IMG/VR virus record: IMGVR_UViG_2585427710_000002
Coordinates: 1 to 13,766 of that record
Length of the DNA: 13,766 nucleotides
From: a virus
Taxonomy: Duplodnaviria; Heunggongvirae; Uroviricota; Caudoviricetes
Strand: one strand, 5' to 3'
This document shows, piece after piece, positions 6,001 to 9,000 of the stretch. How positions within the stretch are numbered: the first letter of the stretch is position 1; every line of letters starts with the position of its first letter. A program made the position numbers.

Positions 6001-9000
6001 TCGCCAAGTAGCCAATTCATAAAATGCCATTTCTAAATCCCCCGGCTCCAGTGCCGGGTTTTATTTACTTAATTACACAGTCGCATATCCTGAAGTAACA
6101 CATCTATAGCTAACTTCACAGCGAGATCATCCAATTCATCATGGTGAAGCACTCGGATCATTCCCGCAATAGCATCTGCTGAAATAGCTTCCCCAGTAGC
6201 AATAACCTCAAGCAACGCCCCCCCTAGAATTTCGACTACCCGCTGGTGCAACACACCAAATTCCCCTTCGATTAACATGCAATCACCCATAACAATCAGC
6301 CTTTCCCCCTTGAAAATATCACGCGGATACCACAAAAAATAAAATATTTTTGTTATCAGTCATTTATAATGTTTTTCATAAAATGATAAATATAGTTATT
6401 GCACAACCAGATAACTTAGGTTATCTTCAATTCAACAGCAGGACGCTGGAAGCCAAACGGAACAGATTGGCCGGCTCTTTAACATTGATGGACTCTCAAC
6501 CTAACCGTTGAGACCAAAATCTAAGTGGTTTTGGGGATGACGAGAATTTCAGTTGCAAGGCCGCGATCGAGAAGAAAAACACCTCGACGCGTCATACACC
6601 AAAGCCACTTAAAGGAGACCATCATGGTAACCGTAATCTGGAAAGAATCCAAAGGTACGGCAAAAAGCCGCTATAAAGCTCGCAGGGAAGAACTTATTGC
6701 AGAGCGGCGCAGTAGTGAAAGACTGACACGGAAGATTGCGCTAAAGATCTCTGGTTGCGTCAGAGCAGACAAAGCAGTATCACTCAGCAGCCTTCGCAAC
6801 AAGAAGGCAGAAGAAGTCGAGCGAAAAAACAGAAGTACTTATTACAAGGATTCAAACCCATTAGGAAACAAAATACATGCAGTTCAAAAAATAAAATTGT
6901 ACAGTAAACCACCGTATGGACTTATTGAGTATGCTTATGGTGAAAAAGACTATTTATGTTAATCCTAATCGCGGACAAAACAGAAAAGTATCTGACAGAA
7001 GCCTTACATCTCGAGACAGAAGGAGGATAGCGAGATGGGAAAAGAGAATAGCATATGCATTAGAAAACGGTATAACACCTGGATTTAATGCTATAGATGA
7101 CGGTCCGGAATATAAGATTAATGAAGACCCAATGAACAAAGTTGACAAAGCATTAGCAACACCATTTCCTCGAGATGTTGAAAAAATTAAAGATGAAAAA
7201 TATGAGGATATAATGCACAGAGTTGTTAACCACGCACACCAACGAAATCCAAATAAAAAATGGTCATAACCCACTTCGATAGATTTTATTGTTTGGACTA
7301 ACAAAAATTACTACCGCAAGCCACGCAGTGAAACGGGTGTGACTTGTGTTGGTCGCCAGAAAATGAAATTAGGCAGCAAACCACTTATTTGAGGTGAGAT
7401 ATGACAAAATCATGGAGCGTACCTTTTCCTGAATCAGAAACTGAACATGATGGAATGCCTGTTTTCTGGAGATTCCAGGCGACAGTTGAAGAAGATGGGA
7501 TAAAAATATTCGCACTTCAATATATAGCTTTTCATCAGACAGAGCATTATGCATGGTTGGTTCCTGCGCATTGGATTGTTAATTTTAAACCAGCACCAAA
7601 TCAGTGGTTACAGGAATGGAAACAAAGGAGAAATAGATATGCAATTAAGAAAGTAGCAAAAAATGCAGAAAGATCTTTTGCATTCCCAACGAAGAAACTT
7701 GCCATTGAAAGTTTATTGCGCCGGAAGAAATACCATTTAATGAGAATCAAACAAGATTTGGCTGTTGTATCAACTCTTGTTGATGGTATGAAGAATATTG
7801 ATACATCAACACCAGATATTGAATATAACTTTGGACACAACCAAGAAACAGAAAATTGGGTATTTTATTAGTACGAATAAGCACTGTGTATTCATTCCAA
7901 CGAGTGAATACACGGAGCAATATCGCTCGTAACTAAACAGGAGCCGACTTGTTCTGATTATTGGAAATCTTCTTTGCCCTCCAATGTGAGGGCGATTTTT
8001 TATCTGTGAGGATATGAACAGATGTCAAACATCAAAAAATACATCATTGATTACGACTGGAAAGCATCAATAGAAATTGAAATCGACCATGACGTAATGA
8101 CAGAGGAAAAACTTCACCAGATTAATAATTTCTGGTCAGACTCTGAATACCGACTCAATAAACACGGCTCTGTATTAAATGCTGTATTAATCATGCTGGC
8201 GCAACATGCTCTGCTTATAGCAATTTCAAGCGACTTAAATGCATATGGTGTTGTGTGTGAGTTCGACTGGAATGATGGAAATGGTCAGGAAGGATGGCCT
8301 CCAATGGATGGTAGCGAAGGAATAAGAATTACCGATATCGATACATCAGGAATATTTGATTCAGATGATATGACTATCAAGGCCGCCTGAGTGCGGCTTT
8401 ACCGCATACCAATAACGCTTCACTCGAGGCGTTTTTCGTTATGTATAAATAAGGAGCACATCATGCAATATGCCATTGCAGGGTGGCCTGTTGCTGGCTG
8501 CCCTTCCGAATCTTTACTTGAACGAATCACCCGTAAATTACGTGACGGATGGAAACGCCTTATCGACATACTTAATCAGCCAGGAGTCCCAAAGAATGGA
8601 TCAAACACTTATGGCTATCCAGACTAAATTCACTATCGCCACTTTTATTGGCGATGAAAAGATGTTTCGTGAAGCCGTCGACGCTTATAAAAAATGGATA
8701 TTAATACTGAAACTGAGATCAAGCAAAAGCATTCACTAACTCCCTTTCCTGTTTTCCTAATCAGCCCGGCATTTCGCGGGCGATATTTTCACAGCCATTT
8801 TCAGGAGTTCAGCCATGAACGCTTATTACATTCAGGATCGTCTTGAGGCTCAGAGCTGGGCGCGTCACTACCAGCAGATCGCCCGTGAAGAGAAAGAGGC
8901 AGAACTGGCAGACGACATGGAAAAAGGCCTGCCCCAGCACCTGTTTGAATCGCTATGCATCGATCATTTGCAACGCCACGGGGCCAGCAAAAAAGCCATT

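Follow-up and report, generated by a model that had tools for sequence, protein, structure and literature searches.

The stretch analysed here, referred to below as the window, comprises 13,766 nucleotides of a virus of the class Caudoviricetes (IMG/VR record IMGVR_UViG_2585427710_000002, positions 1 to 13,766) and covers the immunity and early-left region of a lambdoid prophage of the Stx1a (Shiga toxin 1a) type, in which transcription from pL runs along the + strand. The analysis of the AT-rich block located at 6916-8002, between the antiterminator gene N and ea10, indicated that this block is in all probability a mosaic of two independently assorting modules lying between a phage-21-type N and a lambda-type ea10-cIII-kil-gam-bet-exo backbone. 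The first module carries nun, the gene of the HK022-type transcription arrest factor, and the second carries orf156, a gene of a conserved but uncharacterised family. Both open reading frames (ORFs), 6916..7269 (117 amino acids) and 7401..7871 (156 amino acids), had been reported at these positions by a previous reading made from the sequence alone, which proposed the block as a candidate for an undescribed defence, anti-defence or exclusion function. A gene for superinfection exclusion is indeed present in the block, but it is the already described nun. Moreover, identical DNA has already been deposited: the Stx1a-converting phage Stx1_9793 is 100% identical to the window at 6500-8420 and nine sister phages are 99.9% identical. 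The nun half of the block adds a new phage carrier to biology that is already known. The features of the block and its surroundings are collected in Table 1.

Table 1. Features in and around the block at 6916-8002, followed by the segments of the mosaic map with their closest relatives (pairwise BLAST of the window against named phages).
Feature	Position in the window	Strand	Description or evidence
nutL, phage-21 type	6474..6513	+	boxA GCTCTTTAAC at 6474-6483, long-stem boxB TCTCAACCTAACCGTTGAGA at 6494-6513
N antiterminator, phage-21 type, 112 amino acids	6624..6962	+	phrog_271, E 4.6e-30
nun, HK022-type transcription arrest / superinfection exclusion factor	6937..7269	+	matches to 6ALG, 1HJI and phrog_5632
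Degenerate remnant of the intrinsic terminator of nun	7270..7292	+	3' arm GTGGG changed to ATAGA, T-run shortened
Relic of a lambda-type N 3' end	7300..7392	+	translation NKNYYRKPRSETGVTCVGRQKMKLGSKPLI and stop (also ...YYRKPRSETGVTCVGRQKMKLGSKPLI and stop), matching the lambda N C-terminus ...WYSKPGERGITCSGRQKIKGKSIPLI and stop
orf156, family of HK97 Gp45 / 933W L0079 / Φ24B vb_24B_11c (phrog_1636)	7401..7871	+	phrog_1636 match, ribosome-binding site
Long hairpin	7881..7918 (14-bp core 7884-7915)	+	conserved lambdoid backbone
Intrinsic terminator	7974..8002	+	8-bp stem and T-run; equivalent to lambda ~33952-33924
ea10 (DUF2528)	8022..8390	+	PF10800, E 1.8e-47; 99.5% identical to lambda DNA; lambda-type early-left backbone resumes
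Segment closest to mEp235, 90.5%	6500-7393		nutL, N, nun, joint
Segment closest to HK022, 91.8%	6812-7275		relic of the N 3' end, nun
Segment closest to HK97 / 933W / Φ24B, 98.7-99.8%	7339-8006		joint, orf156, hairpin, terminator
Segment closest to lambda (34045-33476), 99.5%	7881-8450		hairpin, terminator, ea10

The product of the first ORF aligned without gaps over 109 of 109 residues with chain N of the PDB entry 6ALG, which is the HK022 Nun protein in its complex with RNA polymerase (E 1.2e-67, ~92% identity). The 117-amino-acid frame also matched phrog_5632, 'Nun-like transcription termination factor', with an E-value of 7e-69, and a tblastn comparison gave 92-93% identity to the Nun proteins of phages HK022, HK75, mEp235, mEpX1 and O276. 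Judged by these sequence matches, the ORF at 6916..7269 is nun. Its candidate start codons are ATG 6916, ATG 6931, ATG 6937 and GTG 6940, and the solved Nun protein of 109 amino acids starts at the GTG codon.

When compared with the boxB-binding peptide of Nun in 1HJI, 26 of 26 residues were aligned and 24 were identical; the two changes, G to S and K to E, are located outside the RDRRRIARWEKR core. The core of the Arg-rich motif (SRDRRRIARWEKRIAYAL) is identical to that of HK022 Nun, and so are the last 18 residues, MHRVVNHAHQRNPNKKWS. The residues H93, R94, N97, H98, H100, R102, K106, K107 and W108 of Nun contact RNA polymerase, RNA and DNA, as shown by both structure and mutation (PMC5386594). 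All nine are kept in the window Nun, within the identical C-terminal segment. At the codon level, the window nun differs from that of HK022 by 14 synonymous and 8 non-synonymous changes and therefore appears to be under purifying selection.

The gene had looked unassigned because it has no match in Pfam or NCBIfam, because the Prokaryotic Genome Annotation Pipeline (PGAP) labels it 'hypothetical protein', 'regulator' or 'transcriptional regulator', and because the RefSeq record of phage PA28 (NC_041935) annotates its intact nun ORF of 110-117 amino acids solely as a 45-amino-acid 'Nun-like' coding sequence (3633-3770). A search against PADLOC-DB gave no match either, Nun apparently having no PADLOC model. 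The gene was found in 220 of the 5426 complete Escherichia coli genomes (~4%), including Stx1a, O26 and O111 prophages of enterohaemorrhagic E. coli (EHEC). The window allele itself is 100% conserved in 14 deposited phage records, among them 11 Stx1a-converting phages, PA28 and 06-3462, and is carried at an identity of at least 99% by 30 E. coli genomes. The practical value of these results is mostly corrective, as they concern an annotation gap for nun in a block that is mostly known biology and in which no new system was shown.

Nun's sole known function is the exclusion of lambda and lambda imm434, which have NUT sites in common (PMC4124055). By homology to HK022, we have high confidence that the window Nun would act on superinfecting lambda-type genomes through the boxB-tethered arrest of RNA polymerase. 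In this scheme, the lysogen would produce Nun in small amounts, as the homology to HK022 Nun suggests, and the Arg-rich motif of the protein would bind lambda-type boxB in the nascent pL and pR transcripts of the superinfecting phage in competition with N. The C-terminal segment would then wedge into RNA polymerase and block its translocation, leaving the incoming early genes unexpressed. Nun in Stx prophages could influence which lambdoid phages are able to superinfect EHEC, among them other Stx phages whose nut sites are of the lambda type.

Immunity to its own Nun is expected of the resident phage, since its N and nut sites are of the phage-21 type and no lambda boxB (GCCCTGAARAAGGGC) was found anywhere in the window; it would escape Nun by means of this N and its boxB. 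In nutR, the same boxA as in nutL is located at 4856-4865 on the minus strand and is followed by a boxB-like hairpin, TTCACCTCTAACAGGGTGAG. The resident boxB hairpins of both nut sites have a long stem and a CTAAC loop. In its Arg-rich motif, the resident N agrees at 21 of 22 residues with the PDB entry 1NYB ('Probable regulatory protein N'), the complex of boxB with the N peptide of phage 21.

As the sequence-only reading had noted, N runs into the start of the first ORF. It should be noted that a 1-nucleotide deletion relative to mEp235 and the O26 prophages (GG-ACTT vs GGTGCTT; window 6920-6962) extends N from 101 to 112 amino acids. Because of this deletion, the last ~11 codons of N overlap the start codons of nun by 20-45 nucleotides. 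The annotated pL region of HK022 shows no N gene, whereas the window nun coexists with a functional-looking N of the phage-21 type. In this respect the window resembles mEp235 and mEpX1, in which N and then nun are annotated.

The mosaic map in Table 1 is borne out by the way in which nun and orf156 are distributed among the phages. HK022 carries nun but lacks orf156. In 933W, HK97 and Φ24B, orf156 follows right after N and there is no nun. In mEp235 (2985-3608) and in the prophage of E. coli 382634_2f (2317-2940 of the locus), nun is followed by a gene of the Nmad5 family (putative nucleotide modification). The two genes therefore occur apart and assort independently, which does not agree with the single cassette seen by the sequence-only reading. 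The pair found in the window is present in 138 of the 5426 complete E. coli genomes.

Both modules are bordered by pieces of N genes. In HK022, nun occupies the same pL-proximal position as in the window and is preceded by the same ~130-bp N-relic sequence: HK022 2390-2515 (window 6812-6936) comes from the 3' end of an N gene of the phage-21 type (...VVRKNRSIYCKDSNPLGNKIHAVQKIKLYSKLPYGAY) and adjoins nun on its upstream side. Since HK022 keeps this N 3' end, the nun module travels together with it, and the nun promoter is presumably located inside it. On the other side of nun, the relic at 7300-7392, the equivalent of which is called 'regulator, incomplete, missing N-terminus' by PGAP, separates nun from orf156. 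In 933W and HK97 the same relic follows N genes that are unrelated, and in mEp235 it precedes the Nmad5-family gene; the 933W/HK97-type N has its stop codon at the start of the relic. From its sequence context, the relic appears to be a recombination joint for the swapping of N alleles and their downstream cargo.

The second module carries a gene which, judged by its sequence conservation, is a real protein-coding gene of a conserved family. The strong ribosome-binding site that had been claimed for it is GAGGTGAG at 7391-7398, just 5' of ATG 7401. The protein matched phrog_1636 over its full length (residues 1-156 of 156, E 2.7e-112). It is 99.4% identical to HK97 Gp45 and 99-100% identical to 933W L0079 (ST933Wp19), Φ24B vb_24B_11c and the unnamed ORFs of H-19B and BP-4795. 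HK97, 933W and Φ24B share with the window the N 3' relic joint upstream of orf156 and the hairpin and terminator downstream of it; they differ in that orf156 directly follows N, whereas nun precedes it in the window. The exact orf156 sequence was found on at least 1000 contigs, and full-length homologues with 55-85% identity are present in Pectobacterium, Brenneria, Rosenbergiella, Cronobacter, Symbiopectobacterium and metagenomes.

An exhaustive profile search extended the family to 87 representatives at E<=1e-3, most of which are 125-165 amino acids long. The members share a beta-hairpin (YYR...EDG[IL]), an aromatic-acidic C-terminus and the motif K+[VI].K...RFAF.TK..A...L..RK..QL.HLK.DL. 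Near-invariance in the widened family is limited to G33, K87 and A101, and orf156 is therefore more likely to be a binder than an enzyme. All 52 of the 52 aligned members matched phrog_1636, and many also matched phrog families 13631 or 25384, each of these being a PHROG with the label of function unknown. The profile and structure searches run here likewise assigned the 156-amino-acid protein to no characterised family, as the sequence-only reading had claimed, and clear homology to such a family, for which we looked, was not found. The single protein and the 52-sequence profile gave nothing significant against Pfam, NCBIfam, PADLOC and PDB sequences, and the Pfam scan of the 52 family members gave 0 matches even at E<=10. 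The sole match in PADLOC-DB was a chance-level one to Cas1_II (E 0.018, 12 bits).

The structure of the orf156 product was predicted using AlphaFold. The first model, based on 20 close homologues, reached a predicted local distance difference test (pLDDT) score of 59.5 and was discarded. When distant homologues from an exhaustive hidden Markov model search were included, the AlphaFold2 model reached a pLDDT of 95.5 and a predicted template modelling score (pTM) of 0.82. The modelled protein is of the alpha/beta type, with three long strands (19-55) that form a long twisted beta-sheet, short helices and a strand at 83-86. Its C-terminal part consists of a 33-residue helix (98-130) and an ordered, packed aromatic-acidic tail. 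A Foldseek search of the model against the PDB gave a best E-value of 1.5 and thus no similar solved structure. A candidate assignment to GIY-YIG (1ZG2, E 0.42) was ruled out, as the family has no conserved catalytic residues.

The fold search in BFVD identified 12 proteins at E<=1e-3, all of which are uncharacterised phage proteins. They come from Erwinia phage phiEa2809, Achromobacter phage phiAxp-3, Delftia phage RG-2014 and phages of Tenacibaculum, Cellulophaga, Rhizobium and Sinorhizobium. Several of these phages, N4-like and others, are virulent.

In the window, orf156 would be transcribed from pL immediately after N. We suggest with low confidence that its product is an early lytic accessory binding protein serving in counter-defence or host takeover, and that it is a positional analogue of Ral. 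This suggestion is made because the same fold occurs in virulent phages, because the gene is positioned after N, and because the slot elsewhere holds Ral, SieB or a nucleotide modification gene. Like ral and sieB of lambda, orf156 lies in the slot between the N 3' end and the hairpin and terminator before ea10, and it would share with them the early N-dependent transcription from pL. Its sequence matched none of the Pfam families searched, any Ral or SieB model among them included, and no PHROG with a named function; it is an analogue of Ral and SieB by position only. A further-reaching idea, which we put forward tentatively and consider rather improbable, is that with the orf156 family begins a new structural class of small counter-defence or host-takeover proteins that bind a host factor very early, a class widespread in temperate phages and, judged by the BFVD fold matches, in virulent phages as well, and that in this lineage the decay of the nun terminator adds expression in the lysogen together with nun. 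As the gene is present in the model phages HK97, 933W, H-19B and Φ24B and its predicted fold has no solved relative, it is a target for screens of anti-defence and host-takeover functions.

Instead of serving in defence or counter-defence, orf156 might be a nucleic-acid-binding early regulator or a recombination or integration factor, for example one that resembles AP2 or integrase-arm domains. With a pI of 9.07 the protein is basic, residues 79-117 form a positive patch, and the part RFAF.TK..A...L of the family motif resembles the beta3-helix junction of AP2 and arm-type DNA-binding domains. The presence of xis-int, Cro-like helix-turn-helix, Rha and ParB-like genes beside some relatives is also in line with such a role. 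The relatives of orf156 are located in early or accessory regions of temperate phages, next to N in the lambdoid phages, next to xis-int in Pectobacterium, Brenneria and another prophage, and next to a ParB-like gene in Salmonella-type phages; in a Vibrio phage the neighbours are a Cro-like helix-turn-helix gene, Rha, YopX and Nmad5. The search for AP2, integrase and Arm-DNA-bind Pfam domains in the 52 family members gave, however, no match at E<=10, so that the specific assignment to an AP2 or integrase-arm DNA binder was rejected, and no partner gene is conserved across these contexts. We therefore consider a role of this kind unlikely. In the Vibrio phage, the Nmad5-family gene (6448-7080) was seen in the same early operon as the orf156 relative.

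Another explanation is that orf156 encodes an exclusion or defence factor expressed in the lysogen, which in the window would be co-transcribed with nun owing to the loss of the nun terminator. According to King and colleagues in 2000, the lysogen reportedly transcribes nun from a constitutive promoter lying immediately upstream of the coding sequence, and the transcript is said to end after nun. In HK022 and mEp235, the nun stop codon is followed by a 7-bp GC hairpin and a U-run (-11.8 and -10.3 kcal/mol, respectively). The window has no such hairpin at this site (-4.9 kcal/mol, z -0.4). If nun is transcribed in this way, the loss of the terminator would let its transcripts in this lineage run through orf156 as far as the terminator at 7974-8002. 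In the mosaic reading that we prefer, too, read-through from the nun promoter may give orf156 a second route of transcription, in the lysogen, besides that from pL.

The occupation of the same slot by sieB in lambda and the strong ribosome-binding site of orf156 would also fit a factor acting in the lysogen. The nun terminator is, however, intact in the nun-orf156 prophages of O26:H11 11368, FORC_028 and 2010C_3902. Its loss is specific to the allele of the window and PA28, and was ruled out as a general trait of prophages with this gene pair. In 933W, HK97 and Φ24B, orf156 directly follows N without a nun promoter upstream, and the same fold occurs in virulent phages, for which a role confined to the lysogen would make no sense. 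Together with the lack of a PADLOC match, these observations make it quite improbable that orf156 serves as such a factor.

According to the sequence-only reading, 6916-8002 would be one foreign cassette that has its own exit signals and encodes an undescribed defence, anti-defence or exclusion system. Some of its observations were reproduced here. The GC content is 35.6-35.7% in both ORFs as compared with 47.0% for the window, and the block replaces sieB/orf28/ral of lambda, the homology to lambda restarting at window 7881 (lambda 34045), just 3' of ral. The recurrence of the nun-orf156 pair and the absence of a known family for orf156 would agree with a single foreign unit as well. Since the GC content is also low in N (42.8%) and ea10 (38.8%), the AT-richness is a property of the whole pL-proximal region. 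Against one cassette stand the identity of the first ORF with the described gene nun, the separate occurrence of the two genes in HK022, 933W, HK97, Φ24B and mEp235, and the N-gene relic between them.

The hairpin and the terminator do exist as claimed. The hairpin at 7884..7915 has a 14-bp stem, and the surrounding 143 nucleotides fold with -45 kcal/mol (z = -4.1, with 0 of 200 shuffled sequences folding as well). The terminator at 7974-7995 consists of an 8-bp stem, 5 pairs of which are GC, and the adjoining TTTTTTAT. They are not exit signals of the cassette, however, as both are located inside the 7881-8450 stretch that is 99.5% identical to lambda, beyond the variable segment. HK97 and 933W carry the hairpin as well, and in the record of HK97 the site of the terminator is labelled 'terminator, putative'. 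The early-left terminator of lambda has the same position relative to ea10, and no difference from it was found; it probably belongs to the tL2 group. The block gave matches in 2251 of the 5426 complete E. coli genomes, and among the matches listed most cover the 7881-8450 segment only. Within 6900-8010 no Rfam family was matched, and among the minus-strand ORFs of the block 0 had a PHROG match. Taken together, the one-cassette explanation is very improbable. In the mosaic of two modules, the hairpin and terminator would end the N-independent transcription from pL before ea10. In HK022 (~2885-3975), an IS903 element is inserted in the backbone hairpin, the left arm of which, CACTGTGTATTCATTCC, abuts the end of the insertion sequence, GGCTTTGTTGAATAAATCG; the homology of HK022 to window 7892-8003 restarts after IS903.

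The weakest alternative, that the ORF at 6916-7269 is a decaying untranslated remnant of nun, would account for the lack of an obvious Shine-Dalgarno sequence, the overlap with the extended N 3' end, the loss of its own terminator and the 45-amino-acid annotation in PA28, but it is scarcely credible, as the frame is fully intact with all functionally important residues conserved, the substitutions are skewed to synonymous ones, the allele is preserved without change in the phage records and nearly so in the E. coli genomes counted above, and the functional nun of HK022 shares both the weak signals for translation and the rare codons for Arg. The run of rare codons AGA AGG AGG ATA GCG AGA was indeed seen at ~7021-7038. 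It had been taken as a sign that the ORF may be untranslated or foreign; yet it encodes RRRIAR of the Nun Arg-rich motif, and HK022 has rare Arg codons at this place too. With its matches to 6ALG and phrog_5632 and its intact motifs, the ORF belongs to one of the best-characterised phage exclusion genes.

Several observations weigh against the proposed roles of the two modules, nun and orf156. The window Nun carries 8 substitutions relative to HK022, including the G to S and K to E changes beside the Arg-rich motif, and its activity is deduced from homology. The extended N frame covers the nun start and could affect the translation of nun. The scanning for a consensus of the nun promoter (P_Nun) gave no candidate in the window, HK022 or mEp235, and the sole argument for the retention of P_Nun in the window is the ~92% identity to HK022 over the 130 bp that precede nun. 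As for orf156, no recurring partner gene was found across nine neighbourhoods of its close and distant relatives, and the literature searched by gene name, locus tag and accession yielded nothing on the HK97 Gp45 family. The proposed anti-defence role is a guess made only from its position and its presence in virulent phages.

Some other elements of the window were also observed. The 'rex slot', bounded by the cI terminator (6041-6058) and by pL/nutL, holds an ORF of 88 amino acids at 6069-6335 on the minus strand. This ORF matched phrog_3946 (unknown function, E 3e-29), had no PADLOC match and is unannotated in the RefSeq record of PA28; it is possibly a moron expressed in the lysogen. At 233-431 on the minus strand, three Rfam matches above the gathering score were obtained, namely the C4 antisense RNA at 233-316 (66.7 bits), the Hfq-binding small RNA isrK at 342-418 (75.5 bits) and the c4 a1b1 target at 379-431. 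Their arrangement suggests an antisense control module of the P1/P7 type, like an anti-repressor switch. Finally, the lambda cIII thermoregulator RNA element was found at full length at 8450-8508 on the + strand, at the start of cIII (84.2 bits, E 1e-19).

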